Assembly: GCA_965217895.1 (NCBI GenBank)
Contig: CBDCJV010000002.1
Span: 2,016,001-2,080,000 of the forward strand
Direction: 5' to 3'
Origin: Waterburya sp.
GTDB taxonomy: Bacteria > Cyanobacteriota > Cyanobacteriia > Cyanobacteriales > Xenococcaceae
Length of the DNA: 64,000 nucleotides
The position numbers and the translations under genes are program-made. The notes below the pieces were generated by a model that did not search any database, was not told where the DNA came from, and saw only the letters and a list, made by a program, of their open reading frames with translations. Positions 40,176 through 61,945 of this stretch are shown one piece after another; within the stretch, counting starts at the first letter, position 1, and each line of letters starts with the position of its first letter.

Positions 40176-43100
40176 ATGCCTAATATAAATCGTCAATCTA
40201 AAACTAAAGCCACTCTTTCAGCGATCGCGGTTGTGGGGATGAGTTGTCAATATCCAGGGGCCAAAGACATTAGGCAACTTTGGTCGAATATCTTGGCAAA
40301 ACGACAGCAATTTCGACAAATTCCCGATGTACGCCTACCAATAGCTGAATATTACGATCGCGATCGCTCTGTCCCCGATAAGACTTATGGCGATCGCGCT
40401 GCGGTAATTGATGGTTTTGAGTTTGATTGGATTGGGCGACGCATTCCTCAGCAAACAGTACAGACTACAGATATCGTACATTGGCTGGCGTTGGAAACTG
40501 CCAATGAAGCTTTAAAAGATGCAGGCTTTAATCGCCAAAATGTGAATACAGCCAAAACGGGGGTAATTTTAGGCAACACCTTAACTGGAGAGCAAACTCG
40601 TGCCAGTACCTTACGTTTGCGCTGGCCTTACGTCAGACGAGCTTTAATCGCATCTGCCCAAGCTAGAAAAATGAGCGATCGAGTAATTGAAGCTTTGGTT
40701 GAAACAATGGAGCAGTTTTATAAATCTGTTTTTGCTCCCGTCAACGAAGATTCTTTGGCAGGAGGACTTTCTAACACTATTGCTGGTAGGATTTGCAACT
40801 TTTTCAATTTTGATGGTGGAGGATACACGGTTGATGGGGCTTGTGCTTCTTCCTTAATTGCTACAGCTACAGCTTGCAGCAAATTAGTTAGTGGCGATCT
40901 AGATTTGGCTTTGGCGGGAGGAGTAGACGTTAGTTTAGATACCTTTGAGCTAATTGGTTTTGCTAAAACTGGAGCTTTGACTGCGGGCGATATGGCAGTT
41001 TACGATCGCCGTGCTAGTGGTTTTATTCCAGGAGAAGGCTGTGGTTTTGTCGTTCTCAAACGATTAGCAGACGCAAGAGCAGCAGGAGATTATGTTTATG
41101 GCGTAATTCGAGGCTGGGGCATTTCTTCTGACGGTAAAGGCGGAATCACTGCACCTTCTGGGATAGGACAAAGCAAAGCTATACTCAGAGCCTATGAAAA
41201 AGCAGGTTATCATCCATCAGAATTAGATTTCATTGAAGGACATGGTACGGGAACTCCTGTAGGCGATCGCGTAGAATTAGAAGGGATTGCTTTAGCCATT
41301 TCTCAAGGAGAAGCCCAGATTAAACTCCGCTCGGTAGGCATTACTTCATTCAAATCTTTAGTCGGACATACCAAAGCAGCAGCAGGGGTTGGTGGTTTGA
41401 TTAAAGCTGTTATGGCAGTCAACCAGAGAATAATTCCTCCTACTGCTGGCTGTGCTGAAGCAAATCCTTTATTTGCCACTACTGCCCAATCTATTTATCC
41501 TGTTTTAACGGGAAAAGTTTGTCAGCCAAATACGACTCTTCGGGCTGGAGTTTCGGCAATGGGTTTTGGGGGAATTAATTCTCACCTTACTTTAGAGTCG
41601 GGCGATCATGCAGCCGAGCATTTGAAAACCGATTTGTTTCCTAAAGCTTTGCTAGTTTCGGCTCAAGACAGCGAAGTATTTATTTTAAGTGCCATTTCTG
41701 TTGAGAAATTATTAGAGCGCATTGAAAGACTAATCGATCTGGCAAGGGGAATTAGTCTGGCAGAGATGGTAGATTTAGCTGCCCTGCTAACAAGGCAAAT
41801 AGATTCCCAGCAACAGGTAAGAGCAGCAATAATTGTGACGACACCCAAGCAGTTAGCTGAAATTCTCCAGAAAATCAAACAGATTTTAGCAGATTCGCCA
41901 CCAGCGAAAGGAGAACTGACAACATCTCCCACTCAAGATTTTTGGCTGGCAAATACAGTTAACCATTCTAAAGTAGCCTTTATCTTTCCAGGACAAGGTT
42001 CGCAAAGATTGAACATGGCGAGTACTTTAGTGGAGCGTTATGACTGGGCGCAGCAGTTAGTTAGACAAGCAGACAAATGGTTAGAGGAAGTTAGTTGTCA
42101 GCCAGTTAGCCCTTTAATCTATTGTTGTTTAGAACAAGCAGCAGACGAAAGCGAAATAACTAATTGGTTTAGGGATCTATCTCGTGCTGAAATTGCTTCT
42201 CCTGCTATTTGCTTGGTTTCTTTATTGTGGCTGCGCTATCTCCAAGAACTAGGAATTGAACCCGTGGCAGTCGGTGGACATAGCTTAGGCGAATTGACGG
42301 CTTTTTATCAAATAGGAGCTTTTGACGCTAAGACTTTAATTCAGTTTGCAGCAATTAGAGGTCGAGCTTTAGCCAATTCTGGCAAAGAAACAGGAGCTAT
42401 GGCTAGTCTGGGTTGCGATCGCGCCTTTGCTGACCAAATCATTCAACAGGCATCGGGCTATGTGGTTATTGCTAATTTAAATAGTCCCAGCCAAACGGTT
42501 GTTTCAGGGGAATCTGAGAGTATTGACTCAGTTGTAAAAATAGCGGTTGCTCGAGGAATTCAAGTTAAAAAATTGCCTGTAGCTAATGCTTTTCATTCTG
42601 AGATAGTCAGAGAAGCAGCTAAATATATTACAAATAATGCTGCAGTTCCCGCCAAGCTAGTAGACACTGCGACTCCTTTATTTTCCAGTATCGATGGCAA
42701 ACAAATTCAACCAGAAGTTAAATTAAGCCACCATTTTGGCAAACAGATAGTTTCTGCGGTAGATTTTGTAGCTTTAACAACAAATATTTACCAGCATTGC
42801 GATTTAATACTAGAGGTTGGTTCTGGTCGAGTTTTAGCTAACCTAATTAATACAACTATCAACTCTAAACAGCCCGTTGGCTTTTGTACTGAAGGCAAAC
42901 CGACAACAAGTAAAAATCTTAACTGCTTTTTAGGCAGATTATTCGTTGCCAATCAAGAAATAAACTGGCAAGCACTATATAAAAATCGTTTAGTACATTC
43001 TTTTATTCCACCGTCGGAAAAATTATTTATTGATAATCCTTGCGAACGTCCTTTTAAAGTACCTGAAACTTATTTATCTCAATTAACACCAATTTTGACT

Positions 43101-46100
43101 GAGAATCAACCACCAAACAGTTTAAATAAACTAGAAAGCCTAGATAAAATTATGGCTGCTAATCAACACGACTTTAAAGAAATATTATCTCAGTATTTTA
43201 GCGATCGCAGTTCCTTTTTAGCTGAAATAATTAAAGCAGATCTGGCAACTCTACCAAAGCAATTATTAAATTTAGAAAGCAGAAGCGATCGGGATTTAGT
43301 ACCTATGCTATCTCGGTATTTCCAGATCAGAGGCTCGTTTCTAGGGCAAATCATTAATTCAGACCTAAAATCTTTAAACTATCTCGATGGGTTAAAAACG
43401 CGATCGCCCTACCAAGAATTAGAGTTGAGCAATGCTATAAAATCAAATCTCAATTATCTCAATGGCAATAGTAATAATCATCAACAAGCCGAGCAAAATT
43501 ATGTTAACAAAGCTGTTTCATTGAAGCCAGAAGTAAAGCATCAAGCCGAAGCAGCTAATAATTTGCGATCGCATATCGAACAATTTTTATTAAACTCAGT
43601 TGTCGAGAAAACAGGTTATCCCCTAGAAAGTATCGACCTAAGTTTAAAATTATTAGATGACTTAAATTTAGACTCGATTAAAGCAGGAGAACTAATTGCT
43701 ATAACTGCTAAGAAGTTTGGTGTAGCTGGGCAATTACAGCCCTCTAGTTTGGCTAACGGTACTCTCAAGCAGATAGCAGAAGAAATTGTCTTATCAATTT
43801 CTGGAGATTCAAAAGTAGTCAATGACAATCCTAAAGCTGAAGGCGCGGTACTAGCCAACAAAAATCAGAAAATCGTTCCAAATATTGTAGTTAGATCGTC
43901 AACTTCTACCTGGGTGCGTAATTTTGCGATCGCCTATGTCGAGCAAAAAATACCTCAACGGGATAAAGATTGGTTACAAGCCAAAGTTTTAGTTGTTACT
44001 GACAAGACTCATTTAATTGCTGATGTGGTAGCCGAACAGCTTGGTAATTTAGGTGCGCGAGTTGATCGCATTACTTATCAAGAAATAGATGATAATCTGA
44101 CTGTAACTGCTAACTATTCTGATTATTTTGCGTTGCTACCCCAGACGAGTAGCTCTTTACCATTAAAGACAATGGTAGAAAGGCTTAAAAGCATTGTTAC
44201 GGCTAGTAAAAACAGTCTTACTCCCAATATTGCTTATATTCAGTTTGGCGGTGGTTATTTCGGCGAGCGACCCCGCGCGCGGTCAACGCGCAAGGGAACC
44301 CGCGAGCTTGGACAGGGAAAACAAGCAATATCTCCAGAAGTATGTTGCGCTGCTGCTTTTGCTCGAAGCTGGCATTTAGAGCGTTCGGATTTGCGAGTGC
44401 GAGTTATCGATCTGGCTACAGAAATTGAACCCAATGATGCTGCTCAATTAGCGATCGCCGAACTAGCAGGAAATGAAGCGATTGTTACTGTAGGCTATGA
44501 TGCAAATAAGAGACGTTTAGTTCCCAGACCCCTATTACAGCAACCAGTTCACTACCAAAAGCGCGATCGCTCATGGTCGGAACAAGATGTGATTTTAGTT
44601 ACGGGAGGCGCGAAAGGAATCACCGCCGAGTGTGCTTTAGCTTTAGCGCAGTCAATTGATGTAAGAATGGCAATAGTGGGACGTTCTAACCAATCAAAGG
44701 TAGCTCAAACCTTAGAACGATTTCCTAAGCAAGATCGAATCCGCTACTATACCTGCGATATTACCGATGCTGATGCAGTCAAACGATTAATTACTACGAT
44801 TACTGCCGACTTAGGTACAGTTACTGGCGTAATTCATGGTGCGGGAGTCAATCAGCCTCAAAGAGTTGAAGAAGTCAGTGTTGAAGCTGCGGTTGAAGAA
44901 GTGTCGCCCAAGCTACTAGGAGCATATAACCTCTTGCAATCCTTGGCAGCAACTCCACCAAAGTTATTTATGGCGTTTAGCTCGATCATCGGCGTAACGG
45001 GAATGCCTGGTAATGCTTGGTATGGATTTTCTAACGAATCTCTAGCCATCTTACTGCGCCAGTTTAACCGCCATCACCCAGAAACTCAAACTCTTTCTTT
45101 GGCTTACAGCGTTTGGGGTGAGGTAGGCATGGGAGCGCGTTTGGGTAGTCTCAAAAATCTAGAGCGCATGGGCATTGATGCTATTCCTACCCAAGAAGGA
45201 GTAAATCGCTTTGTTCAGCTTTTTCATTACGATCCAGGAGTACAGCAGATAATTATTGCTGCACGTTTGGGTGGTTTGGATACCTGGCTACCAGATTTTT
45301 CTCCACCAACCAAATTACGTTTTATCGAGTCAGTTTTGCACCTCGAACCCGAAGTAGAATTGACCGCTCGCACTCATCTTAGTTTAGAACGGGATTTATA
45401 CTTACAAGACCATCTCTGGCGCGGGTCTTATCTCTTTCCCACCGTATTCGGTTTAGAAGCAATGGCTCAAGCAACTGCCTACGTTCTGGGGGAAGAAAAA
45501 CCTGCGATCGCAGCAATTGAAGATATTTCTTTGAAACAGCCAATTGTCGTCGATCCAGATCGGGGAGTGGCTATAGAAATTTATGCTGAGGTGTTAGAAG
45601 TCGATCTTCAGGGAGAACGACGAGTCAAAGTCGCAATTCGCAGCGAACAGAGTAACTTTACTAGCGATTGCTTTACCGCCACATTAGTTATTAAAGAGGC
45701 AAAAGCACCAGTAAAACTAGATTTGAAACTAGATCGAGCCTTAGAATTAAATCCCCAAACCGATCTTTATGGCGACTTACTCTTTCAGGGTTCGCGTTTT
45801 CAAAGAATGGGTAAAATTTTTACTCTGACTTCTACAAATTGTGTTTTCCAGGCTGAAATGCGATCGCCAGACGAACTAATAGCAGATAGCTTTACTACTT
45901 ATGAAGATAGCTATCTAATTTTGGGCGATCCTTACTTGAGAGATGTATTACTCCAGTCAGTCCAGCTTACTATTCCCCGCGATATTTCCTTGCCCGTTAA
46001 GATCGGTAAGATTGAACTGTTTAATAATTCTTCAAGTCGCAATAATTCTAACAAAATCGTAACGGCTCATTTGCAACCGCGGTCAGGAAATGAATATTTA

Positions 46101-47951
46101 AGTGAAGTTTTGCTTACCGACGACTCAGGCCTTGTTTTAGAAAAATTGACTAGCTATCGTCTGCGGATTCTCGAAGAACATCCTGATAACCCAACTGCGG
46201 TCGAATTGGCTTTTCCTGAAACTCGCGATCGCCAGCTACTCGATCGGGCTTTAAAATCTGTTACAGATAAGTTCGATCTAAATTTACCTGCTATAGCTCT
46301 GGGAGTTACGCCCAATATACACAAAGTCAGCAAAGAACAACGCCGTCAAATAGAAAAACCGATTGTAGCTGATGCTCTAAATACTAAACTAGGTTTATCC
46401 TCCACAGCAGAAATTGAATTTGAGATTGAGTCTTTAGCTTCTGGGAAACCACAGCTGAAGGGGGCGGAAACCGCAGGATTAGAACTGTCTCTATCTCACT
46501 GCGATCGCTATTGTTTGGCTGTAATAGATAAAACGCCACAAGGATGCGACATTGAGCCAATTACTCTTCGTTTGACAGAAGATTGGCAAGCCCTTTTAGG
46601 AAACTCCCAAAGCGAGATTATTGCAGAATTAATTCAACAAGGAGACAGCCTAGACATGGCTGGTACTAGAATTTGGTCGGCAGGTGAAGCAATTAATAAA
46701 GCCTTCAACGACACTGATGCCCAATTTTCAATTAGCAATCGCGATGGCGATGCGGTGTTGTTAAAGTGTTTGACTCCTACAGGCAAATACTATGTCGTTA
46801 CATTTCCTATTAAATTAACTCGTCCTCTAGAAAGAATCATTGCGATCGCCGTTTCCTTACCTGGAACTGATTCAATCCCTGTAGTTTCTGCCCTCTCAAC
46901 TGATATTGCCGAAAATCGCAGCCATCGCTCCCGTTATACCAGAGACAATCCCCAAGGACAATTAGTTTACGAACAGCGTTTTCAAGCCAGCTTTAAAGAT
47001 AGTGGCAGTATTAGTCGTCACGTCTATTTCTCCCAGTATTTTCGCTGGATTGGTAAAATTCGCGAAATACCGATGGAAAGCATTGCCAACCAAATTTTAA
47101 GAGACTTCTTAACTGGAGAATGGGGCATGGTAACTAATACCGTTAGTCTGCGGGTATTGGGTGAAGCCACTGCTTATGATGTGATTCAAGCCCGCGCTTG
47201 GGTAGGTAATATTGTTGATTCTTCTTTTACTACTTATATTGAATTTTGCCAAGTGCTGCCTGACGAATCTTTAAGCAGACTGGCGATCGCTGAAGTTAAA
47301 GCTACCTGGGTACGTCTAGTTAGCTATGGTGTTCCTTCTCCTATGACTTTTCCAGACTATCTACAAGAATACCTCGACCGATTCGCGACCAAAAAACCAG
47401 CCACTCTCGATCTTAAACAACCCGATTCTTTACCCCTGCCACCATTACCTGCTAGTCTGAAGGAAATAAACTTAGGTCATTTACTACAACAGGCTTCTTC
47501 TCAGGAGCGTTATGGACAGCTAATCTACTCCGAAGTTTTTCAGACAACTCTAGAAGAATCAAATTTAGTCGGTAATGTTTATTACGGCAACTACTTTATC
47601 TGGCAAGGTCGGATTCTCGATCTGTTTCTCTACTCAATCGCTCCTGAATATTTACGGGTTTCAAACCCTCGCGGGGAAATGATTTGTCTGTACAGTCGTA
47701 TGGACTATCTAAAAGAAGCAATGCCTTTTGACAAAATTCGCGTCGATCTTTATGTCAGCTCGGTTTTTGAATCTGGAGCAAAATTTAACTTTGAATTCTT
47801 TCGAGAACAACCAGACGGAAAAAGAGAAAAACTTCACATTGGTCAGCAAGAGGTGGCATGGGTAAAACGGCTAGAAAATGGTACTCCTGTATCTACATCG
47901 TTGCCTCCGATATTGAGACAAAAGCTTTTAAAATCATTTAGCAAAAACTAA
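40176..47951 (+). CDS. Enediyne-type iterative type I PKS (KS-AT-ACP-KR-DH-PPTase) with two fused hot-dog thioesterase domains
   Basis: KS DGACASS/EGHGTGT/GHTKAAAG with PKSE-like LRLRWPYVRR and EDSLAGGLSNTIAGRICN; AT GHSLG; ACP LNLDSI; KR TGGAKGITAECA; DH DHLWRGSYLFP; PPTase SLSH/GCDIE/RIWSAGE; TE EESNLVGNVYYGNYFIWQGR. Confidence 0.92.
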   Translation: MPNINRQSKTKATLSAIAVVGMSCQYPGAKDIRQLWSNILAKRQQFRQIPDVRLPIAEYYDRDRSVPDKTYGDRAAVIDGFEFDWIGRRIPQQTVQTTDIVHWLALETANEALKDAGFNRQNVNTAKTGVILGNTLTGEQTRASTLRLRWPYVRRALIASAQARKMSDRVIEALVETMEQFYKSVFAPVNEDSLAGGLSNTIAGRICNFFNFDGGGYTVDGACASSLIATATACSKLVSGDLDLALAGGVDVSLDTFELIGFAKTGALTAGDMAVYDRRASGFIPGEGCGFVVLKRLADARAAGDYVYGVIRGWGISSDGKGGITAPSGIGQSKAILRAYEKAGYHPSELDFIEGHGTGTPVGDRVELEGIALAISQGEAQIKLRSVGITSFKSLVGHTKAAAGVGGLIKAVMAVNQRIIPPTAGCAEANPLFATTAQSIYPVLTGKVCQPNTTLRAGVSAMGFGGINSHLTLESGDHAAEHLKTDLFPKALLVSAQDSEVFILSAISVEKLLERIERLIDLARGISLAEMVDLAALLTRQIDSQQQVRAAIIVTTPKQLAEILQKIKQILADSPPAKGELTTSPTQDFWLANTVNHSKVAFIFPGQGSQRLNMASTLVERYDWAQQLVRQADKWLEEVSCQPVSPLIYCCLEQAADESEITNWFRDLSRAEIASPAICLVSLLWLRYLQELGIEPVAVGGHSLGELTAFYQIGAFDAKTLIQFAAIRGRALANSGKETGAMASLGCDRAFADQIIQQASGYVVIANLNSPSQTVVSGESESIDSVVKIAVARGIQVKKLPVANAFHSEIVREAAKYITNNAAVPAKLVDTATPLFSSIDGKQIQPEVKLSHHFGKQIVSAVDFVALTTNIYQHCDLILEVGSGRVLANLINTTINSKQPVGFCTEGKPTTSKNLNCFLGRLFVANQEINWQALYKNRLVHSFIPPSEKLFIDNPCERPFKVPETYLSQLTPILTENQPPNSLNKLESLDKIMAANQHDFKEILSQYFSDRSSFLAEIIKADLATLPKQLLNLESRSDRDLVPMLSRYFQIRGSFLGQIINSDLKSLNYLDGLKTRSPYQELELSNAIKSNLNYLNGNSNNHQQAEQNYVNKAVSLKPEVKHQAEAANNLRSHIEQFLLNSVVEKTGYPLESIDLSLKLLDDLNLDSIKAGELIAITAKKFGVAGQLQPSSLANGTLKQIAEEIVLSISGDSKVVNDNPKAEGAVLANKNQKIVPNIVVRSSTSTWVRNFAIAYVEQKIPQRDKDWLQAKVLVVTDKTHLIADVVAEQLGNLGARVDRITYQEIDDNLTVTANYSDYFALLPQTSSSLPLKTMVERLKSIVTASKNSLTPNIAYIQFGGGYFGERPRARSTRKGTRELGQGKQAISPEVCCAAAFARSWHLERSDLRVRVIDLATEIEPNDAAQLAIAELAGNEAIVTVGYDANKRRLVPRPLLQQPVHYQKRDRSWSEQDVILVTGGAKGITAECALALAQSIDVRMAIVGRSNQSKVAQTLERFPKQDRIRYYTCDITDADAVKRLITTITADLGTVTGVIHGAGVNQPQRVEEVSVEAAVEEVSPKLLGAYNLLQSLAATPPKLFMAFSSIIGVTGMPGNAWYGFSNESLAILLRQFNRHHPETQTLSLAYSVWGEVGMGARLGSLKNLERMGIDAIPTQEGVNRFVQLFHYDPGVQQIIIAARLGGLDTWLPDFSPPTKLRFIESVLHLEPEVELTARTHLSLERDLYLQDHLWRGSYLFPTVFGLEAMAQATAYVLGEEKPAIAAIEDISLKQPIVVDPDRGVAIEIYAEVLEVDLQGERRVKVAIRSEQSNFTSDCFTATLVIKEAKAPVKLDLKLDRALELNPQTDLYGDLLFQGSRFQRMGKIFTLTSTNCVFQAEMRSPDELIADSFTTYEDSYLILGDPYLRDVLLQSVQLTIPRDISLPVKIGKIELFNNSSSRNNSNKIVTAHLQPRSGNEYLSEVLLTDDSGLVLEKLTSYRLRILEEHPDNPTAVELAFPETRDRQLLDRALKSVTDKFDLNLPAIALGVTPNIHKVSKEQRRQIEKPIVADALNTKLGLSSTAEIEFEIESLASGKPQLKGAETAGLELSLSHCDRYCLAVIDKTPQGCDIEPITLRLTEDWQALLGNSQSEIIAELIQQGDSLDMAGTRIWSAGEAINKAFNDTDAQFSISNRDGDAVLLKCLTPTGKYYVVTFPIKLTRPLERIIAIAVSLPGTDSIPVVSALSTDIAENRSHRSRYTRDNPQGQLVYEQRFQASFKDSGSISRHVYFSQYFRWIGKIREIPMESIANQILRDFLTGEWGMVTNTVSLRVLGEATAYDVIQARAWVGNIVDSSFTTYIEFCQVLPDESLSRLAIAEVKATWVRLVSYGVPSPMTFPDYLQEYLDRFATKKPATLDLKQPDSLPLPPLPASLKEINLGHLLQQASSQERYGQLIYSEVFQTTLEESNLVGNVYYGNYFIWQGRILDLFLYSIAPEYLRVSNPRGEMICLYSRMDYLKEAMPFDKIRVDLYVSSVFESGAKFNFEFFREQPDGKREKLHIGQQEVAWVKRLENGTPVSTSLPPILRQKLLKSFSKN

Positions 47952-48011: not shown

Positions 48012-48989
48012 ATGGACAATATGGAATTTATTATTAATGCAGTCAGTGGTACTGATGCCAATGACTTTCTCTTGGGCAGTCCTAACAATGATGCGATCGA
48101 GGGAAACGGTGGTAATGATTTGCTACTTGCTAATCTTGGAGATGACGCTTTAGTAGGTGGCAACGGTAACGATGCCATGTTTGGTGGTCCTGGGGTTGAT
48201 GTTTTAGATGGAGGCCCTGACGAGGATACGATCTTTGGTCAAGACGGTCTTGACGCGCTCAACGGTGGTGATGGCAACGATGCCATATTTGGTGGTGCAG
48301 ACCAAGATGCGCTCAACGGTGGCAATGGCGACGACGCTTTGTTTGGTGAGGGCGGTCTTAACTCGATTGACGGTGGTGATGGTCGCGATGCCCTATTTGG
48401 TGGTGAAGATAACGATATTTTAAATGGCGGTGCTGGGGATGATGGTTTATTAGGTAACGGCGGTAATGATGTCTTATTTGGCGAACTGGGCAACGATGTG
48501 ATGTCTGGCGGTGACGGCGACGATCGCATGAATGGCGATAAAAACAACGATGCTATGTTTGGTGGCAACGGTGACGATATCTTAATTGGTGGCGATGATA
48601 ACGACGTGCTTTCTGGAGATGACGGTAGCGATCTTTTAATTGGTGGCGCGGGAATAGACCAAATTACAGGCGGTGCTGGTGCCGATTTCTTTGGTTTGAC
48701 TACCGAAACAGGAGCCAACATTATTACCGATTTTGTAGTTGAAGATGATACTCTCTTTGTCTCCGCTGCGGATTTTGGTGGAGGCTTAACCCCAGGTGCG
48801 CTGATTCAACCAGAGAGTTTTGTCCTGGGAACGTCAGCTACTACGGAGAGCGATCGCTTTATTTACAATGATGCGGACGGTTCTCTATTCTTTGATGTAG
48901 ATGGAGTTGGCGCAAGCGAACAGATTCAAATAGCAAGCTTATCAACAGGACTTGAATTGACTAATAACGATATTTTCGTTTTTGCTTAA
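48012..48989 (+). CDS. RTX/hemolysin-type calcium-binding protein
   Basis: About 20 GGxGxDxLx nonapeptides; C-terminal DRFIYN..GSLFFD.DG domain; no signal peptide. Confidence 0.9.
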   Translation: MDNMEFIINAVSGTDANDFLLGSPNNDAIEGNGGNDLLLANLGDDALVGGNGNDAMFGGPGVDVLDGGPDEDTIFGQDGLDALNGGDGNDAIFGGADQDALNGGNGDDALFGEGGLNSIDGGDGRDALFGGEDNDILNGGAGDDGLLGNGGNDVLFGELGNDVMSGGDGDDRMNGDKNNDAMFGGNGDDILIGGDDNDVLSGDDGSDLLIGGAGIDQITGGAGADFFGLTTETGANIITDFVVEDDTLFVSAADFGGGLTPGALIQPESFVLGTSATTESDRFIYNDADGSLFFDVDGVGASEQIQIASLSTGLELTNNDIFVFA

Positions 48990-49542: not shown

Positions 49543-51300
49543 ATGCTTACTGCTAAATTATTAGAATACGACGTAGTAATTATGGGTGCGGGTTTTGCTG
49601 GACTCTGCCAAGCTCGGCACTTAATGCTTAATGTTCCAGGAGTAAAAGTTGCTTTAGTCGATCCGCGACCCGAAAAGCGATCTCATAAAGATCTGAAAAT
49701 TGGTGAATCGACGATCGAAATTGCGGCTCTTTTTCTGTCCAAAGAATTAGGTCTGCACGAATACTTAATTGAAAACCACGCACCCAAAAAAGGCTTGAAT
49801 TTTCACTGGGCAAAAAACGGAGGCGCGGGTAAAACCAACGCTATAGAAGACTACTACCACGTTTGGTCAAACCGACAAGTACCAATTCCTTCTTTTCAAA
49901 TTAATCGAGCGAGGTTTGAAGAGGACTTGCTGGCTATGAATCAAGAAATGGGGGCTGTATTCTATCACGGGCGAGTAGTTGATGCCGATCTTACTCCCAA
50001 AGATGTAGTTAAAATCGTCACGATCAAAACTGGTGGAGAAAACTTGGAACTAAAAGCCAAGCACGTTATTGATGCTGCTGGTCGCAAGTTTATCATTGGG
50101 CGCAAAACAGACAATCTAATTTTTGAACCAGAAAATCTGATGGGATTGAATACTGGTTCTGCCTGGATGCGGATTAAAAACGCCGACCGCACTATTTTCC
50201 ACGACGGATATGACCCAACGGGAGCATCAACCAGTCATTACTACTCTACTAATCATTTTTTTGGGCGCGGTCATTGGCTGTGGATGATTCCTACCGATAC
50301 TGAATCTGGAGAATTATCTATTGGCATGATTCACCATCATCAAGAGTTACCAGCTAGCCAAGTTAATACCCAAGAAAAATTCCGTACTTTTCTGCAAAAT
50401 AACCATGCCATCTTAGATCGGTTGATTGAAAGTGGCGAACCAGTAGATTTTCAGTATCGATCGCGTTTGGCACACACTAGTAAAACCATGTTCTCAGAAG
50501 ACAACTGGTACGTACTCGGCGATGCTGCCTATATCTTCGATGCCTTTTATTCCTTTGGCACAACAACCGTTGCTTTAGCTATTGAAGCAATCACCGAAAT
50601 CGTGCGGGCTAAACTTGCTCAAGAACCAGATGCCGAAGCCAAACGTGCTGCATACAATGAGTTTAACTTGGCTTATGCCCGTAGCGTTAACTGTCTCTAT
50701 CGGGGTCACGATAAACAGCTAGGTCATGCCAGCGTCATGAGCTGGCGCATTTACTTTGAGTATATGTGGTGGTTTGGGGTTCAAGTCCCGATGTACGTTG
50801 GTAAATGGCATTTGGATCTCACCTTCATCTCGATATATGTCAAAACTTTAAATAGTAATGTAGATGGGCTGTTTGCCGATGTATGCCAACAGTTCGAGCA
50901 GTTGGTAGAACAAGATGTCAACCTTGGTTTAATGGACTGTTACCGCGCCGATGGATTGCTGGGTAACTATCACACCCTCAAGCACTTTGATCGCTTCTTA
51001 GAAAATACTAAACTCGAACCCAGACACTGCAACGTTTTTGCAGGTCTAAAATCTACTTGTTTTTATGCTGCTATTTGGTATGCCAAGTTTCAGTGGAAGG
51101 GTTTTGGCGTGCGGGGATTGTTAAGACCCCTCAGTCTTTATCATTTTGGTAGGTTATTAGCACTATCGGCTCAAGGAGCAATAGGCGAACTGGTCTACAA
51201 ATCTAAAACTAGAAATTTACCTGCTAACAGTCAAGTCGAACAAATGCAGCGAGAGTTTGAGTCTTACCAATACCAAACCGAACTACAGCCTTGGATTTAA
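49543..51300 (+). CDS. Flavin-dependent halogenase-like protein 1
   Basis: GAGFAG, KIGES, PKKG (candidate catalytic Lys), WLWMIP and GDAA motifs. Confidence 0.78.
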   Translation: MLTAKLLEYDVVIMGAGFAGLCQARHLMLNVPGVKVALVDPRPEKRSHKDLKIGESTIEIAALFLSKELGLHEYLIENHAPKKGLNFHWAKNGGAGKTNAIEDYYHVWSNRQVPIPSFQINRARFEEDLLAMNQEMGAVFYHGRVVDADLTPKDVVKIVTIKTGGENLELKAKHVIDAAGRKFIIGRKTDNLIFEPENLMGLNTGSAWMRIKNADRTIFHDGYDPTGASTSHYYSTNHFFGRGHWLWMIPTDTESGELSIGMIHHHQELPASQVNTQEKFRTFLQNNHAILDRLIESGEPVDFQYRSRLAHTSKTMFSEDNWYVLGDAAYIFDAFYSFGTTTVALAIEAITEIVRAKLAQEPDAEAKRAAYNEFNLAYARSVNCLYRGHDKQLGHASVMSWRIYFEYMWWFGVQVPMYVGKWHLDLTFISIYVKTLNSNVDGLFADVCQQFEQLVEQDVNLGLMDCYRADGLLGNYHTLKHFDRFLENTKLEPRHCNVFAGLKSTCFYAAIWYAKFQWKGFGVRGLLRPLSLYHFGRLLALSAQGAIGELVYKSKTRNLPANSQVEQMQREFESYQYQTELQPWI

Positions 51301-51393
51301 TAAATAGCTTTCCTGAAGGATACCGCCTTCTTATATTCGTAGAGGCGAACAATTGTTCGCCTCTACCTTTCTACTTTTTTAATAAAACCAACT

Positions 51394-53190
51394 ATGAATT
51401 CTCTTACCACTCAGACATTAGAATACGACGTTGCCATTATGGGGGCGGGATTTGCTGGTGTTTGCCAAGCCCGACATCTGCTGCTAAATATTCCTAATAT
51501 TCGAGTGGCGATAATTGACCCTCGCCCCATGCTGCGATCGCAGAAAGATTTAAAACTCGGTGAATCGTTAATTGAAGTCGCTGCTCTTTTTCTAGCTAAA
51601 GAATTAGGACTTAATGATTATCTAATCGAAAACCACACGCCCAAATCTGGGTTAAACTTTCACTGGCCCAAACAAAGCGATCGCACCGAAACTCTCGATG
51701 ACTACTATCACGTTTGGGCAAATCGACAGACCCCCATTGCTTCATACCACTTACACCGAGCTAAATTCGAGCAGGATCTGCTCAAAATGAACGCAGACAT
51801 GGGAGCAATTTTTTATCACGGTCGCGTTACCGATGTAGATCTAACCGAGGGAGACGCGCTTAAAAATATTGAAGTTAAACAAGGCAAAGAAACTTTAAAC
51901 ATCAAAGCCAAGCACGTTATCGATGCTGCTGGTCGTCGATTTCTCATCGGACAGAAAACCGATAATCTATTGTTTGGTGCCGAAAATCTCCTTGGAGTTA
52001 ATAACGGTTCTGCTTGGCTGCGAGTTAAAAACGTTGATCGCCAGATCTTTGATGAGGGATACGATCCTACGGGAACAACGAGCAGCCGTTACTATGCTAC
52101 CAATCACTATTTTGGTTCGGGACATTGGCTGTGGATGATTCCTATCGATAAACATTCCAACGAGCTATCAATTGGGGTGGTTCACCATCACAATGTTATT
52201 GCAGCTAAAGAAATTAATACCCAAGAGAAATTTTTTGGGTTTCTCGAAGCAAATCACAAGCTTTTGGCACGTCTGATTGATAGTGGTGAAATTGTTGATT
52301 TTCACTATTGGTCGAAGCTAGCTTATAAAAGTAAAACTCTGTTTTCCCCAGATAATTGGTATGTCCTGGGGGATGCAGCGCAAATCTTTGATGGTTTCTA
52401 TTCCTATGGAACGACGATGATTGCTTTTGCGGTAGAAAGCACCACAGAAATTATTCGCGCCAAGCTAGCGGGAGAGGCTGATGCTGAAATCAAGCGATCG
52501 GCATACAATGACTTTAATCTTGCTTACGGTCGCAGCGTTAACTGTCTCTATCGAGGTCATGATAAACAATTAGGTCATGCCAGCGTTATGAGTTGGCGTA
52601 TTTACTTTGAGTATATGTGGTGGTTTGGGGTACATATACCAATGTATATCGGTAAATGGCATCTCAACCTGAAGTTTGTTGACAAATACGTAGACATTGC
52701 TAATGCCAACGTCGATGGGCTTTTTGCCGATCTTTCTCAGCAATTTGATCGCTTAGTAGAACAAAGAGCGAATATCGGCTTGATGGATCCTTACCGAGCC
52801 GATCGCCTGTTTGGATATAGCACATTACAGCACTTTGATGACTTTTTAGAAAATACTAAATTCGAGCCAATGCGGTGTAATGTTTTCGCCAGCATGAAAA
52901 ATGCTTATTTTTACATCGCGCTGTGGTATGTACTGTTTCAGTGGAAAGGGTTTGGTATTGCTGGGTTAATCAATCCCCGTCATCTATATCACTTCGGTCG
53001 TTTGTTAGCACTATCGGTTAAAGCAGTTATCGGTGAAATAATTTATAAATTCAAAACCAGAGGTTTGCCCGACAATAGCCAAGTCGAACAGATTCGTCAA
53101 GAGTTTGAGAGTTACCGATACCGACCACAGCAGTTGATGCCAACAAAAGCGGTGCAACAGGAGCAGGAGGAGTTTGCCAAACAGCGATAA
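51394..53190 (+). CDS. Flavin-dependent halogenase-like protein 2 (paralog of 1)
   Basis: GAGFAG, KLGES, PKSG, WLWMIP and GDAA motifs; colinear with the preceding gene. Confidence 0.78.
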   Translation: MNSLTTQTLEYDVAIMGAGFAGVCQARHLLLNIPNIRVAIIDPRPMLRSQKDLKLGESLIEVAALFLAKELGLNDYLIENHTPKSGLNFHWPKQSDRTETLDDYYHVWANRQTPIASYHLHRAKFEQDLLKMNADMGAIFYHGRVTDVDLTEGDALKNIEVKQGKETLNIKAKHVIDAAGRRFLIGQKTDNLLFGAENLLGVNNGSAWLRVKNVDRQIFDEGYDPTGTTSSRYYATNHYFGSGHWLWMIPIDKHSNELSIGVVHHHNVIAAKEINTQEKFFGFLEANHKLLARLIDSGEIVDFHYWSKLAYKSKTLFSPDNWYVLGDAAQIFDGFYSYGTTMIAFAVESTTEIIRAKLAGEADAEIKRSAYNDFNLAYGRSVNCLYRGHDKQLGHASVMSWRIYFEYMWWFGVHIPMYIGKWHLNLKFVDKYVDIANANVDGLFADLSQQFDRLVEQRANIGLMDPYRADRLFGYSTLQHFDDFLENTKFEPMRCNVFASMKNAYFYIALWYVLFQWKGFGIAGLINPRHLYHFGRLLALSVKAVIGEIIYKFKTRGLPDNSQVEQIRQEFESYRYRPQQLMPTKAVQQEQEEFAKQR

Positions 53191-53236: not shown

Positions 53237-54253
53237 ATGTTATTGGAATTAGCTAAATATATACTCGCAGGTGCGATCGCCTTGCTTTTATTCTTGATAG
53301 TGATAGGAAGGGTCTACCAAGCCACTGCTACTGCAAGAGATTGCTCCAAATATCCGCCTCCAGGTAAGCTAATATATATCGGCGGGTATAAACTTCACCT
53401 TGATTGTCAGGGAGAAGGCGAGATTACCGTAGTTATGGATTATGGTTTGGGGGGCTTATCTTCCCTTTGGAGTCTGGTACAGTCAAAAGTAGCAAAATTT
53501 ACTCAGGTCTGTACCTATGACCGTGCTGGTTATGGTTGGAGCGATCGCAGTCCTTATCCTCGTACGAGTCAGCAGCTAGTTCGAGAACTGCATTTATTGT
53601 TAACTAAAGCCGAAATTAAACCTCCCTACATCTTGGTGGGTCATTCTTTAGGAGGCTTGAATATGCGTTTATTCGCCAGTCAATATCCCGATGAAGTTAG
53701 AGCAATAGTATTGGTAGATGCCGTACCCGCTAATATTTATTCTCGCTTAAATCCTCAGTTTCAGAAATATATGGCCAAAACCAACCAGATGTTTTTTTGG
53801 TTGTCTATTCTGTCGCGATTTGGTTTGTTGCGCTTGGGAACTCAACTGCTAGGGAATAAAGTCGCTCCAGATTTTGTCCGTAAGCTACCTGCTGAAATTC
53901 AACCAATAGTTCTGGCTCAGTTTTGCCCTAAGACTTTTAATACAGCGATCGCCGAAAGTCTGTTAATGGAAGATAGTGCCAAGCAAGTTAGCCAGACAAA
54001 ATTACCAGAAGATTTGCCCTTAATATTGCTATCTCACGGAATCAATATGTTTTCTAACCTTTCAGTTTCAGAAGCAGAAAAAGCTGGGTCGGTTTGGCAG
54101 AAACTGCAAGCAGAAACGGCATTGACTTCAAAAGGTATGTTAAACCAGGCTCAAACAAGCGGTCATGATATTCATATCGATTGCCCTCAGCTAGTAATAG
54201 ATGGGATTCGTCAAGCGATTTTATTGTCCGAAGGGCGATCGCGCGATCAATAA
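53237..54253 (+). CDS. Membrane-anchored alpha/beta hydrolase
   Basis: N-terminal TM, YDRAGYGWS, GHSLG nucleophile elbow and SGHDIH. Confidence 0.9.
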   Translation: MLLELAKYILAGAIALLLFLIVIGRVYQATATARDCSKYPPPGKLIYIGGYKLHLDCQGEGEITVVMDYGLGGLSSLWSLVQSKVAKFTQVCTYDRAGYGWSDRSPYPRTSQQLVRELHLLLTKAEIKPPYILVGHSLGGLNMRLFASQYPDEVRAIVLVDAVPANIYSRLNPQFQKYMAKTNQMFFWLSILSRFGLLRLGTQLLGNKVAPDFVRKLPAEIQPIVLAQFCPKTFNTAIAESLLMEDSAKQVSQTKLPEDLPLILLSHGINMFSNLSVSEAEKAGSVWQKLQAETALTSKGMLNQAQTSGHDIHIDCPQLVIDGIRQAILLSEGRSRDQ

Positions 54254-54326: not shown

Positions 54327-56339
54327 ATGATTCGCATTCTGCTAGTAGACGATTGCAACATGATACGGCAAGGACTTCAAGCATTGCTCGAACTCAGAGC
54401 GAAACTAAAAGTAGTGGGTACTGCCGAAGATGGTCACAGCGTAATAGAACAGGTAAAGAATCTCCAACCTGATATTGTGTTGATGGATATCGAGATGCCA
54501 GGAATGAGTGGCATAACTGCCACCGAAAAAATTTGTCAGCAATTTCCCCAGACAAAAGTTATCGTTCTCAGCAGCCACGAAGAGCAAGAATATGTTATTC
54601 AAGCTTTAAAAGCGGGAGCAGAAGGCTATTTACTAAAAAATGCTCATGCTGATGATCTAGAACAGGCAATTTTCGCAGTATATCGAGGTCAGTGCCAGAT
54701 AGAGTCAAAATTATTTAAAGAAGTATTCGCCAAATCTTCTATTTTGCGATCTCTTGAATCATCAGAACTAAACACATCTACTTCGATAGGCGAGCGATCG
54801 CCTGAGTTAGAAAGGGATCTCAACCAGGCGTTTAATTATACGGAGAACAGTAAAAATGGCTCATCGTCAAAGATTAGCAAGACGATTCCAAAACTAGTAA
54901 ATGAACGATCGTCATCTGAGATTGACGAAGTAAACGCTAGCTCTGCTTCAAAACGAGATACTGTTTATCAGCCATTAGCTTGGGGTTTAGAAACATCGGC
55001 GTTAAACTCTGACTCGATTGAGGAAAAACCAAAATTGCAGCCTAAAAAAACCATATTTTTCCAGTATTTGTGGTGGTGGATTATCGGCTTAGGGGTCTTT
55101 TCCATCTTATTGATTGCTATAATTACTTTTGTTTATTTACGAGCTAGCAAAAATTCTCCTCAACCAGTTGTAGAAACTCGCGTCGTACCCCAAGCAGTTT
55201 CAGCAATTGGTTATTTAGAACCACAAGGAGAAGCAATTAAACTATCTGCACCTGCTTTTTTGGAAGGGGCGCGTATCGAGCAGTTGCTGGTCAAACGAGG
55301 AGAAAAGGTTAAAACTGGGCAAGTAGTAGCAATTTTAGATAATCGCGATCGCTTACAGGCTGCTCTCCAACAAGCACAAGCAGAAGTAAAAACGGCTCAA
55401 GCTCGTCTGGCACAAGTCAAAGCAGGAGCCAAACAAGGAGAAATCCAATCGCAAAACGCTAAACTTCAAGAGACAAAAGCCGAATTAGCTGGGCAAATTG
55501 CTACCCAAACCGCCAACATTGCTAATTTAAAAGCTCAACTTGAAGGACAAACTAATTCTCAACGGGCAACTATTGCCAGATTAAAGGCTGAATTAAACAA
55601 CGCGACTAAAGAATGTCAGCGATACGAATTTCTCTTAGCCGATGGTGCGATCGCTGCTTCCAAACGCGATCGGATCTGCTTGCAGCAAGAAACTACTCAA
55701 AAACAACTCCAAGCTGCAAATGTAAATTTAATTGAAACTAAAGCGACCCTACAACAACAAATCGGTGAAGCCCAAGCTAATTTGAAACGTACTAAAGCAA
55801 CTTTAGCTAACCAAATTAATGAAGCCGAAGCTAGTTTTAAAGCCGTAGCCGAAGTCCGCCCTGTAGATGTAGCCGTCGCTCAATCCGAATTAGCAACTGC
55901 GATCGCTGCTGTTAAAAAGGGACAAGCAGACTTAGATTTAGCCTCTGTAAAATCGCCAATAAACGGTCAGATCTTAGAGATTAATACTTGGCCAGGAGAA
56001 TTTGTTGACAATGCCAAAGGTATAGTGGTGATGGGCGATACCCAGAATATGTACGTAGTCGCAGAAGTCTACGAAACCGATATAGATCGCGTTCACATCG
56101 GTCAAAGCGCAACCATTACTAGCGATGGAATTACTCAAAAACTAGCTGGAACTGTCGATGATGTTGGTTGGCAAATTGGCACTAAAGACGTTCTTGGTAC
56201 TGATCCTGTAGCAGATACAGACGCTAGAGTTGTCAAAGTCAAAATTCGCTTAAACGCCAAATCTAGCCAGCGAGTAAAGCATTTAACTAACCTAGAAGTT
56301 AACGCCATTATCAATACATCCAAACAGATTCAAAAATAG
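54327..56339 (+). CDS. Receiver domain fused to a DevB/HlyD-family membrane fusion protein
   Basis: IRILLVDD/LMDIEMP/YLLK receiver; TM; AIGYLEPQG, coiled coil, VAEVYETD and DARVVKVKIRL DevB motifs. Confidence 0.88.
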   Translation: MIRILLVDDCNMIRQGLQALLELRAKLKVVGTAEDGHSVIEQVKNLQPDIVLMDIEMPGMSGITATEKICQQFPQTKVIVLSSHEEQEYVIQALKAGAEGYLLKNAHADDLEQAIFAVYRGQCQIESKLFKEVFAKSSILRSLESSELNTSTSIGERSPELERDLNQAFNYTENSKNGSSSKISKTIPKLVNERSSSEIDEVNASSASKRDTVYQPLAWGLETSALNSDSIEEKPKLQPKKTIFFQYLWWWIIGLGVFSILLIAIITFVYLRASKNSPQPVVETRVVPQAVSAIGYLEPQGEAIKLSAPAFLEGARIEQLLVKRGEKVKTGQVVAILDNRDRLQAALQQAQAEVKTAQARLAQVKAGAKQGEIQSQNAKLQETKAELAGQIATQTANIANLKAQLEGQTNSQRATIARLKAELNNATKECQRYEFLLADGAIAASKRDRICLQQETTQKQLQAANVNLIETKATLQQQIGEAQANLKRTKATLANQINEAEASFKAVAEVRPVDVAVAQSELATAIAAVKKGQADLDLASVKSPINGQILEINTWPGEFVDNAKGIVVMGDTQNMYVVAEVYETDIDRVHIGQSATITSDGITQKLAGTVDDVGWQIGTKDVLGTDPVADTDARVVKVKIRLNAKSSQRVKHLTNLEVNAIINTSKQIQK

Positions 56340-56351
56340 GGGATTAAATTA

Positions 56352-57524
56352 ATGTTCGATCGCTTGTTTACTGCTTGGCTACAGCTAAAATATCAAAAAA
56401 TTCGGTTTTTAATTGCACTTTCGGGGGTAATTTTTGCCGTTGTCATTGTTTTTATGCAATTGGGTATTCGCGATGCCTTATTTAACAGTGCGGTTCGTTT
56501 TCACCAAGGTTTACAAGGAGACTGCTTTATTATTAGTCCTCGCTCGACATCTTTAATCGCCATGGAAAGTTTTTCTCAACGCCGTTTGGTGCAAGCCTTA
56601 GCTTTTGAAGAAGTAGAATTTGTTAATCCGATTTATCTTGATTTTGTCCAGTGGAAAAATCCCGAATCTAGAAAATACTGGCGTAATATTTTTGTAATAG
56701 GTTTCGATCTTCGACACCAAACTTTCGACTTACCTGGAGTTAAAGCAAGTCTCAATCAACTTCAACTTCCAGATACTATTTTATTTGATCGCACTTCGAG
56801 AACTGAATTTGGACCAGTAGCCGAACAATTTGAGGAAAAAGGTTCGGTGATTACCGAACTGGGAAGTAATAGCGGTTCTAATTGTCGAGTTAAAGTAGTA
56901 GGATTATTTGAGTTAGGAACTTCTTTTGGTTCTGATGGCAACATTATTACCAGCGACGTTAACTTTTTGCGGATCTCAAATACTCGTCAAAAAGGCTTTA
57001 TTGATGTTGGTTTAATTAAATTAAAATCGGCTGTCAATCCAGAACTTTTTAAAACTAAGCTGCAAAAATATTTAGCCCAAGATGTCAGAATTTTTACCAA
57101 ACAGGGATTTATTAACTTTGAAAAAAGCTATTGGCAAAGCAGCACTGCCATTGGCTTTATTTTTAATTTGGGTGTCGCTTTGGGCCTAATCGTCGGCATT
57201 GTCGTGGTTTATCAAATACTTTATACCAACATTTCCGACCACTTGCAGGAATACGCCACTTTAAAAGCGATCGGTTACAGTCGAAGATATATGTTAAATA
57301 TAGTTTTTCAACAAGCTTTAATTATCGGAATTTTGGGTTATATTCCAGGATTATTAATTACTATTATTCAATATGAGTTTACCAAACAGGCAACTTTGCT
57401 ACCAATTGAGATGACTTGGCAAAGAGCGGCGTATGTCTTGGTAGCAACCATAATTATGTGTTCGATCTCTGGGGTTTCGGCGATGAATAAGCTGAAGTCT
57501 GCCAACCCTGCCGATATCTTTTAA
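56352..57524 (+). CDS. devC: DevC-family ABC exporter permease
   Basis: AWLQL, FMQLG, YQILY..ISDHL.EYATLKAIG and PADIF motifs. Confidence 0.9.
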   Translation: MFDRLFTAWLQLKYQKIRFLIALSGVIFAVVIVFMQLGIRDALFNSAVRFHQGLQGDCFIISPRSTSLIAMESFSQRRLVQALAFEEVEFVNPIYLDFVQWKNPESRKYWRNIFVIGFDLRHQTFDLPGVKASLNQLQLPDTILFDRTSRTEFGPVAEQFEEKGSVITELGSNSGSNCRVKVVGLFELGTSFGSDGNIITSDVNFLRISNTRQKGFIDVGLIKLKSAVNPELFKTKLQKYLAQDVRIFTKQGFINFEKSYWQSSTAIGFIFNLGVALGLIVGIVVVYQILYTNISDHLQEYATLKAIGYSRRYMLNIVFQQALIIGILGYIPGLLITIIQYEFTKQATLLPIEMTWQRAAYVLVATIIMCSISGVSAMNKLKSANPADIF

Positions 57525-57535
57525 TCTTTTTAGCG

Positions 57536-58219
57536 ATGAACCCAATTGTGATCCGCAATTTAAATCATTATTTTGGCGAACAAGCTTTAGTCAAACAAAC
57601 CTTATTTGACATCAATATAGAAATCAAAGCGGGTGAGATTATAATCCTAACTGGTCCTTCAGGATCTGGTAAAACTACCTTGCTAACTTTAATCGGTGGA
57701 CTGCGATCGGTTCAATCTGGCAGCTTGCTAACTTTAAATCGAGAATTATGCGGGGCAAGTGAAGCCGACTTAGTCCAACTCAGACGCAAAATTGGCTATA
57801 TCTTTCAGGCACACAATTTATTACCCTTTATGACCGCACAACAAAACGTGCAGATGTCTTTAGAACTAGATAATAATTTAAGTAGTCGTCAAGCTGCTGT
57901 AAAAGCCATGGAAATGCTGGCAGCAGTAGGCTTAGAAGCAAGAGCTAAATACTATCCCCAAAAACTTTCAGGGGGACAAAAACAACGGGTGGCGATCGCC
58001 AGAGCTTTAGCCAGCAATCCTGAGTTAGTTTTAGCCGATGAACCAACTGCTGCTTTAGATAGTAAAACAGGTCGAGAAGTTGTCAATATAATGCGTCGCT
58101 TGGTCAAAGAAAAAAACTCGACGATCCTTTTAGTAACTCATGACAATCGTATTTTAGACACAGCCGATCAAGTTATCCATCTAGAGGATGGTCGCTCGAT
58201 CGGGATAAGTGGTAACTAA
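57536..58219 (+). CDS. devA: DevA-family ABC exporter ATPase
   Basis: LNHYFG, GPSGSGKTT, GYIFQAHNL and LSGGQKQRVAIARA motifs. Confidence 0.92.
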   Translation: MNPIVIRNLNHYFGEQALVKQTLFDINIEIKAGEIIILTGPSGSGKTTLLTLIGGLRSVQSGSLLTLNRELCGASEADLVQLRRKIGYIFQAHNLLPFMTAQQNVQMSLELDNNLSSRQAAVKAMEMLAAVGLEARAKYYPQKLSGGQKQRVAIARALASNPELVLADEPTAALDSKTGREVVNIMRRLVKEKNSTILLVTHDNRILDTADQVIHLEDGRSIGISGN

Positions 58220-61936: not shown

Positions 61937-61945
61937 TTTAAATTA

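Follow-up and report, generated by a model that had tools for sequence, protein, structure and literature searches.

A PKSE-clade polyketide synthase operon with JamD-like halogenase-family enzymes and a DevBCA-type pump in a Waterburya genome

To our knowledge, polyketide synthases (PKSs) of the PKSE type have been met almost exclusively at the start of the pathways that lead to enediyne antitumour antibiotics. The occurrence of such a synthase in a cyanobacterium, Waterburya sp., at the head of an operon that also encodes halogenase-like flavoenzymes and a pump, raises the question of what it makes there. The operon lies in a stretch of 64,000 nucleotides (contig CBDCJV010000002.1, positions 2,016,001 to 2,080,000), hereafter the window, whose gene content was called by Pfam and NCBIfam profile searches with curated cut-offs. 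An earlier note on this DNA had described nine intact co-oriented genes at 40176–58219, and its coordinates, strand and absence of stops all checked out: the locus comprises nine intact co-directional open reading frames (ORFs) on the plus strand, without internal stops and with intergenic gaps of 11–125 bp. The product is most likely a linear conjugated polyene that is halogenated and exported. The whole reading, namely that the operon belongs to a patchily distributed family built around a PKSE-clade synthase and yields an exported halogenated linear polyene, not a canonical enediyne, deserves in our judgement a little more than even credence.

The PKSE-clade synthase and its fused thioesterases

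The first gene (40176–47951; this and all other features of the operon are on the plus strand) encodes a PKSE-type iterative type I PKS of 2591 residues. Pfam searches identified a ketosynthase (KS) domain at residues 16–425 (40221–41450; PF00109/PF02801; motifs DGACASS, EGHGTGT and GHTKAAAG), an acyltransferase (AT) domain at residues 602–904 (41979–42887; PF00698, E 2.6e-25) whose GHSLGE and AFHS motifs we take to be of the malonyl type, an acyl carrier protein (ACP) domain at residues 1137–1203 (43584–43784; PF00550) with an LDSI serine motif, a ketoreductase (KR) domain at residues 1473–1648 (44592–45119; PF08659, E 5.5e-28), a dehydratase (DH) domain at residues 1726–2004 (45351–46187; PF21089 and PF14765) with the HxxxGxxxxP motif HLWRGSYLFP, and C-terminal 4HBT_2 matches. 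In an excerpt of PMC9992847, PKSEs are defined by the presence of KS, AT, ACP, KR, DH and phosphopantetheinyl transferase (PPTase) domains in a single protein, and the window PKS has its domains in this order. The first five are plain Pfam matches; the stretch after the DH domain gave a weak ACPS match only (E 0.045).

We identified this stretch as an Sfp-type PPTase domain (residues ~2005–2232; 46188–46871) from its motifs, a profile, a structural model and a Foldseek search. In an alignment of 15 sequences, GKP, SxSH, GCDIE and W..E..K were invariant, and the profile of this alignment had Sfp as its top PDB match, at an E value of only 0.049. The AlphaFold model of the domain had a mean predicted local distance difference test score (pLDDT) of 82.9 and gave 34 Foldseek matches at E<=0.001. 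The listed matches were all Sfp-type (PptT, MuPPT, Sfp, AASDHPPT, PptAb and PcpS), the ranks outside this listing being further chains of the same entries.

Reference PKSEs were drawn from a plasmid collection because DynE8, which we take to be the PKSE with a KS-AT crystal structure, did not appear among the PDB sequence matches (the best 60 of 282, the best 60 of 77 and all 59 for the first 200 residues). A protein search of 72,556 plasmids with the window PKS returned as its top match a cyanobacterial protein from Gloeothece verrucosa PCC 7822 (55.6% identity). The next best-covering matches were Streptomyces PKSs encoded beside two DUF1702 genes, a CRTAC1/VCBS protein gene and an "enediyne biosynthesis protein" gene. 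One of them lies on plasmid SGLP1 of the C-1027 producer S. globisporus, next to a gene annotated SgcE6; the window PKS was colinear with this 1939-aa protein as far as residue 1930 of the latter, with 40% identity in an alignment of 954 aa and 30% in one of 878 aa. Among the 120 PKS homologues listed, 19 bear the JGI name "enediyne polyketide synthase". PKSE-like proteins with 60–70% KS identity were also found beyond cyanobacteria and actinomycetes (for example P0150, P0188, P0192, P0229, P0186 and P0230), with source names including Laceyella, Thermoflavimicrobium, Derxia, Nitrospirota and Candidatus Methanoperedens; some carry fused amine-oxidase/FAD or PilZ domains.

We then weighed the possibility that the synthase belongs with polyunsaturated fatty acid (PUFA) synthases or HglE-type lipid synthases and makes an ordinary secondary lipid. 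Its best NCBIfam match is indeed TIGR02813 (PfaA), at 591.8 bits, and a DevBCA pump is encoded in the same operon. This score, however, is under the cut-off of 1010.1 bits, and SgcE likewise matches the model below threshold (456.5 bits). KS identities were 50–52% to the four Streptomyces PKSEs, compared with 33–38% to PfaA/HglE-like and 31–32% to modular KSs, the comparison set comprising 14 cyanobacterial PfaA/HglE-like KSs (two of them from the same genome) and two modular ones. The earlier note had named KS phylogeny as the way to tell PKSE from PfaA/HglE, and the outcome favoured PKSE: in an IQ-TREE analysis of 35 KS rows, the 15 KSs of the cyanobacterial clusters and the four Streptomyces PKSEs were set apart from all others, including the 14 PfaA/HglE-like KSs, with 100/100 support, at a split where long branches meet according to a warning of the tool and where the four Streptomyces plasmid genes are the only bona fide PKSEs. 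The single ACP, the C-terminal PPTase domain and the enediyne-type thioesterases also speak against a PUFA-type synthase, as does the presence of a separate PfaA-like pair elsewhere in the genome. This pair, at 4733455–4743041 of contig 2, consists of ORFs of 2963 and 1583 aa that match TIGR02813 at 769 and 617 bits, both under the cut-off, and is a second, PUFA-type secondary-lipid locus of the same genome. Since the KS tree and the Foldseek result for the PPTase domain contradict it, we regard the PUFA/HglE assignment as very improbable. Taken together, sequence, structure prediction and phylogeny identify the window PKS as a genuine PKSE-clade synthase with its own PPTase domain.

The earlier note had read the protein as PKSE-TE-TE, where TE stands for thioesterase. 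Both C-terminal hot-dog domains did match SgcE10, and the PPTase domain lies between DH and TE1. TE1 (residues ~2250–2400; 46923–47375) corresponds to the second 4HBT_2 stretch, and TE2 (residues 2458–2585; 47547–47930) to relatives of SgcE10, CalE7 and DynE7 in the PDB (9.6e-15, 5.5e-14 and 2.4e-10, respectively). With SgcE10 as a tblastn query against the window, TE2 was found at E 1e-15 and TE1 at E 2e-4. The AlphaFold model of the pair had a mean pLDDT of just 60.2 because the cut had removed the first strands of TE1, and from this model the TE2 matches alone were used; the top Foldseek matches of TE2 were SgcE10, CalE7, EspE7 and DynE7, with TMt values of 0.81–0.86. In enediyne TEs, the second arginine of the GRCRE stretch has a catalytic role. 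In an alignment of ten relatives, this arginine was retained in 10/10 TE1 but 3/10 TE2 sequences. The fold matches of TE2 include a PDB entry entitled as the EspE7 R35A mutant, which suggests that an arginine matters in these thioesterases. From the alignment, we read the pair as a putative fused double hot-dog unit with a single complete site. Sequence, structure prediction and phylogeny agree that an enediyne-type hot-dog thioesterase is fused to the PKS as a tandem pair. The PKSE is thus accompanied by a cognate TE of the E10/E7 family, though in a fused and duplicated form. According to an excerpt of PMC9992847, PKSE and TE together yield 1,3,5,7,9,11,13-pentadecaheptaene for all tested pairs.

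Enediyne genes and the distribution of the cluster family

Does the operon also contain what is needed to turn such a polyene into an enediyne core? The C-1027 locus carries a DUF1702 gene, an FG-GAP plus UnbV_ASPIC gene and an RnfD-like gene, which we take to be E3, E4 and E5, respectively. NCBIfam has no E3, E4, E5 or PKSE model; therefore, Pfam families and the Streptomyces proteins were used as queries. None of the E3, E4 and E5 proteins of C-1027 matched the window at E<=1e-3, so that these genes, which adjoin the PKS in enediyne clusters, do not do so here. The search was extended to the whole genome (5.29 Mb, 99.89% complete). E3 (PF08012, DUF1702) had no match in it, while a control search of the C-1027 plasmid found both copies, and neither the E4 family (PF07593, UnbV/CRTAC1) nor the SgcE4 protein as a query had a match in the genome. 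With SgcE5, only a 291-aa RnfD-family ORF with 28% identity was found, 436 kb from the operon. We rejected it as an E5 orthologue, as the match covers residues 88–276 only and the ORF sits between DUF2330 and DUF3386 genes. The statement of the earlier note that the locus has no E3, E4 or E5 was upheld and holds for the genome as well, apart from this weak, unlinked match. As the genome searches found neither E3 nor E4, nor an orthologue of E5, we conclude that a canonical enediyne core is not what the operon makes.

Related loci were collected by scanning species-representative genomes with flavoenzyme 1, the first of the two halogenase-like enzymes of the operon, and 35 loci were returned. 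Their record titles include Microcystis, Prochloron, Aetokthonos, Nostoc, Anabaena, Tolypothrix, Moorena and Phormidesmis. A PKSE-like gene adjoined two to three paralogues of the flavoenzyme in 25/35 loci; given this recurrence, the arrangement is not a chance juxtaposition. DevBCA genes were present in 13 loci, the hydrolase gene in 10, the RTX gene in seven (at the same position) and the SPW gene in five. Four of the 10 loci without a PKS gene are on contigs of 2.5–9.9 kb or start inside the gene; the others comprise a Jam-like locus, one in a nonribosomal peptide synthetase (NRPS) setting and four non-cyanobacterial ones. Inspection of six PKS-less loci (L018, with NRPS genes; L028, among housekeeping genes; and the non-cyanobacterial L030–L032 and L035, two of them behind an RND pump) gave no consistent clue to the substrate. 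When 401 evenly sampled cyanobacterial genomes were searched, the halogenase family was found in 14 (10 of 155 genera) and in neither of the two other genomes of the window's genus; the distribution is therefore patchy.

The search for enediyne genes across these loci qualified the earlier note's description of the cluster as lacking E3. E4 and E5 were found in none of the 35 loci, and E3 was not found in the 32 with a PKS that is not TE-less. The description thus stands for the window, the genome and these 32 loci, but not family-wide: three Nostoc/Anabaena variants each carry two DUF1702 (E2/E3-like) genes (L023, 16570–18652; L026, 18536–21060; L029, 19736–21746), and it is in precisely these three that the PKS stops short of the thioesterases. 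The family splits into a TE-fused, E3-less form and a TE-less, DUF1702-bearing form.

Further differences in gene content were seen among the variants. L023 additionally has genes for an RPE65 oxygenase, an aldehyde dehydrogenase, a further FAD monooxygenase and a metal-dependent hydrolase. In L056, on an 880-kb plasmid of Gloeothece verrucosa PCC 7822 (13986–36032), two ORFs make up the PKS, one for KS-AT and one for the rest, and the cluster also has three paralogous halogenases and a gene of the carotenoid oxygenase family. Variant clusters thus carry RPE65 carotenoid-cleavage oxygenases (L023 and L056), aldehyde dehydrogenase, short-chain dehydrogenases/reductases (SDRs), FMO and GDSL lipase genes, an assortment that is consistent with a conjugated-polyene substrate. 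Two proteins without a Pfam match recur in many variants, one of ~130 aa after the last halogenase and one of ~300 aa after the hydrolase (13891–14277 and 15377–16294 in L010; 11119–11517 and 12593–13501 in L013; 30176–30568 and 31025–31891 in L056); both are absent from the window version of the cluster.

The earlier note could not tell whether the arrangement had been described. Its elements held up (PKSE, halogenase family and DevBCA), but the arrangement is not unusual and had been noticed before: it represents a known, widespread orphan cluster family of cyanobacteria and not a singular find. Excerpts of Frangeul et al. 2008 (PMC2442094) describe an orphan cluster of Microcystis with a PksE-like iterative PKS and three halogenases, which Humbert et al. 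2013 (PMC3741299) list among orphan clusters and Penn et al. 2014 (PMC4139720) tabulate. An enediyne KS clade in cyanobacteria appears in the part of Calteau et al. 2014 (PMC4247773) available to us, and a 2022 preprint mentions an "enediyne synthase" gene in a Microcystis cluster from Lake Erie, which may or may not be the same one. No characterised product for the cluster family was found in the literature searched, which covered few subscription journals, and no match to a characterised cluster with a known product turned up there.

Halogenase-family enzymes, the proposed product and its proposed export

The two flavoenzymes, of 585 aa (49543–51300) and 598 aa (51394–53190), are paralogues with partial Trp_halogenase matches. 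Both carry GAGFAG, PK(K/S)GLNFHW and WLWMIP, enzyme 1 reading APKKGLNFHW, and these motifs align onto the PKK lysine stretch and the WVWQIP of PltA. All their PDB sequence matches were flavin-dependent halogenases (14/14 for enzyme 1 and 7/7 for enzyme 2), with PltA at the top (6.9e-17 for enzyme 1), in accord with the earlier note's description of two halogenase-like FAD enzymes with WxWxIP. GxGxxG, the PK lysine and WxWxIP were retained in 68/68 family sequences.

The closest link to a named enzyme is P0104, a protein of 588 aa and the single family member listed from Moorena producens JHB, to which both window enzymes are 64–65% identical over their full length (enzyme 1, 65%). Its source label is only "tryptophan 7-halogenase". 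In locus L016, a cluster-mate of P0104 at 90% identity is flanked by an 84-aa ACP on one side and a modular KS on the other, and the jamaicamide gene order is, as we assume, JamC (ACP)-JamD-JamE (PKS). From the strain and this gene order, P0104 is probably JamD, whose original description reportedly introduced a new halogenase family from marine cyanobacteria. Excerpts of PMC11725856 and PMC12645471 describe JamD of M. producens JHB as an alkynyl halogenase and count it as single-component. No flavin reductase is encoded in the operon, which is consistent with, though no proof of, a single-component enzyme. In a FastTree analysis of the halogenase family, P0104 nested among the PKS-linked paralogues, and enzymes 1 and 2 fell into two separate conserved orthogroups.

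These data also bear on a reading in which the flavoenzymes are reductases or oxygenases resembling geranylgeranyl reductase, which would saturate or oxidise the polyene, and the product is a non-halogenated hydrocarbon or envelope lipid, exported like heterocyst glycolipids. In favour of it, NCBIfam gave sub-threshold matches to the geranylgeranyl reductase family (57.8 versus 158.8 bits) and to LodB/GoxB maturases, the proline of the halogenase tunnel motif is replaced, and DevBCA is best known as a glycolipid exporter. On the other hand, WxWxIP, which according to an excerpt of a review is thought to block monooxygenation, occurs together with the lysine throughout the family, every PDB match is a halogenase, and the identity to the probable JamD is about 65%. 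We therefore regard non-halogenating flavoenzymes as rather improbable.

Downstream of the flavoenzymes, the operon encodes a membrane-anchored alpha/beta serine hydrolase of 338 aa (53237–54253; PF00561) with an N-terminal hydrophobic helix, followed by the three subunits of the pump. Ser137 (in GHSLGG), Asp161 and His310 of the hydrolase were invariant in nine sequences. Reading it as a haloalkane dehalogenase, on the basis of a 29.9-bit match, was rejected because its nucleophile is this invariant serine. DevB (54327–56339, 670 aa) is fused to a response-regulator receiver: the receiver (PF00072, residues 4–115) is followed by a low-complexity linker of ~130 aa, a transmembrane segment and the DevB part (TIGR02971, residues 291–661; 314.3 bits versus a cut-off of 129). 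DevC, an ABC permease (56352–57524; TIGR01185, 497.2 bits versus 290.35), and DevA, an ABC ATPase (57536–58219; TIGR02982, 344.9 bits versus 295.8), complete a pump of which all three subunits are over their NCBIfam cut-offs, so that the designation as a DevBCA-type pump stands. The receiver looks intact, with the DD, D54 and K105 contexts in place, and was matched only in the two closest, L001 and L002, of the 13 loci with DevB. Phosphorylation control of the membrane-fusion protein in an ABC exporter, as the fusion suggests, appears to be unusual. The remaining two genes, between the PKS and the flavoenzymes, encode an RTX (beta-roll) repeat protein of 325 aa (48012–48989; PF00353 HemolysinCabind, 116.6 bits in 10 stretches) and an SPW-repeat membrane protein of 125 aa (49040–49417; PF03779, E 7.9e-9) with four hydrophobic segments in its translation. 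The RTX protein, the four-segment membrane protein, the hydrolase and the receiver-DevB/DevC/DevA set had all been named in the earlier note, and each was matched by Pfam, NCBIfam or the translation.

In the proposed pathway, the PKS would build an ACP-bound conjugated polyene from malonyl units, as SgcE/SgcE10 and other PKSE/TE pairs do, and the TE pair would free a linear polyene, by the same analogy probably near 1,3,5,7,9,11,13-pentadecaheptaene. The two JamD-family halogenases, to judge from their family membership, would then halogenate unsaturated, probably terminal, carbons. The membrane-anchored serine hydrolase may modify or transfer the product at the membrane, and DevBCA, with an outer-membrane partner encoded elsewhere, would export the lipophilic product or deliver it to the envelope; phosphorylation of the receiver, which is presumably cytoplasmic, may tune this export.

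Several points weigh against this reading of an exported halogenated polyene. For both the length of the chain and the geometry of the polyene, the models are actinomycete PKSEs with an overall identity of just 30–40%. TE2 is without the arginine that stand-alone enediyne TEs retain. The tunnel motif, given as Fx.Px.Sx.G in an excerpt of the review, reads FDAFYSFG or FDGFYSYG in the window enzymes, with alanine or glycine in place of proline, and FD(A/G/P)FYSxG across the family, with proline in 7/68. No source names P0104 as JamD, the identity of the two being our deduction; the substrates of JamD are terminal alkynes, and the operon encodes no acetylenase or desaturase. Distant members of the halogenase family occur in non-PKS settings, so that family membership does not fix the substrate class. 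Finally, the RTX, SPW and hydrolase proteins are left without explained roles, and DevBCA requires an outer-membrane partner that the mechanism has to place elsewhere in the genome.

A more far-reaching possibility is that the operon arrives by a different route at polyynes or an enediyne-like warhead: the halogenases would convert the heptaene to vinyl or alkynyl halides, loss of halogen would create the triple bonds, and flavoenzymes and hydrolase together would stand in functionally for E3, E4 and E5. The PKSE/TE core is that of enediyne producers, each cluster has two to three halogenase paralogues in conserved orthogroups, and the family includes the probable alkynyl halogenase JamD. Reportedly, an actinomycete enediyne cassette was found in 2024 to yield an iodoheptaene and a diiodotetrayne. 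Against a polyyne or warhead, the operon contains no cyclase-like, E3/E4/E5-like, self-resistance, apoprotein or acetylenase gene, the hydrolase nucleophile is serine and not the aspartate of a dehalogenase, and the literature searched held no cyanobacterial enediyne. We consider such an end product unlikely. Similarly tentative, and doubtful at present, is the idea that the JamD-family halogenases do openly on the PKSE heptaene what is cryptic in actinomycetes, namely halogenation of the terminus followed by elimination to haloalkynes or polyynes. If true, reactive, alkyne-rich lipids for export would arise from the same precursor without E3, E4 and E5, and the family could serve as a simple and genetically explicit model of how polyene becomes polyyne, a step of enediyne biosynthesis that is still unsolved. 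Halogenation that drives alkyne formation would bear on the long-open origin of the enediyne core from the heptaene.

The flanks of the operon are unrelated to it. Upstream are a psbA-type gene and a Uma2 gene; directly downstream, on the minus strand (59777–64000), are a reverse-transcriptase fragment (233 aa), a TniB/AAA_22 gene and a Mu-transposase/rve gene that extends past the window end, the TniB and Mu-transposase genes being Tn7-like. The site may be part of a region that is mobile or variable. Between the two halogenase genes, the 93-bp gap contains a perfect hairpin (51339–51366; 12-bp stem with seven G-C pairs and a 4-nt loop) followed by a T-rich run, which could be a candidate internal attenuator or RNA-stability element. 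A search of the whole window with Rfam found no match inside the locus; its sole match, outside, was a group II intron catalytic domain (RF00029) at 15089–15166 on the minus strand (40.9 bits versus a gathering score of 40). In a promoter/terminator scan, promoter-like sites were rarer than in shuffled sequences (30 versus a mean of 42), and the scan was not used.

Comparison with known systems

Relative to earlier reports of this family, the present analysis adds the firm assignment of the PKS, PPTase domain included, to the PKSE family, the double hot-dog fusion, the genome-wide evidence for the absence of E3 and E4 and of an E5 orthologue, the split between TE-fused and DUF1702-bearing forms, and the tie of the cluster "halogenases" to the probable JamD family. 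In this family, a PKSE polyene machine is wired to halogenases and a lipid exporter, and in sister clusters to carotenoid-cleavage oxygenases. Bloom-forming and symbiotic cyanobacteria are among its carriers, and the first notice of the cluster dates from 2008.

The C-1027 sgc cassette and the window share a KS-AT-ACP-KR-DH-PPTase synthase, colinear over nearly all 1939 aa and in the same KS clade, as well as a hot-dog TE of the SgcE10/CalE7/DynE7 family. In contrast to the cassette (E3-E4-E5-E-E10), the window is without DUF1702, CRTAC1/UnbV and a convincing E5, and its TE is fused to the PKS and duplicated. The Streptomyces enediyne loci have flavin reductase, P450 and GMC oxidoreductase neighbours, of which the window has none; instead, it has the two halogenase-family enzymes, the serine hydrolase and the DevBCA pump. 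The cluster of Microcystis aeruginosa PCC 7806 is alike in combining an iterative PKS I, which resembles actinobacterial PksE in both architecture and sequence, with tailoring enzymes that include three halogenases, as described in excerpts of PMC2442094. The Microcystis loci L010, L011 and L022, which are not tied to strain PCC 7806 itself, have the PKS, two halogenase paralogues, the hydrolase and DevBCA in common with the window. Identity between the window PKS and the Microcystis PKSs is just 57–58%, and the window, unlike these loci, has a receiver on DevB and is without the two Pfam-less proteins and without the SDR of L022.

The partners of JamD are an alkyne-forming set of the JamABC type and a modular PKS/NRPS line. 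The window flavoenzymes resemble the probable JamD over their full length, whereas their partner is a PKSE and no alkyne-forming desaturase accompanies them. The DevBCA exporter of heterocyst glycolipids is likewise matched by the window pump in all three subunits; unlike that exporter, the window pump is linked to a PKSE cluster and not to hgl genes, and its DevB carries a receiver.

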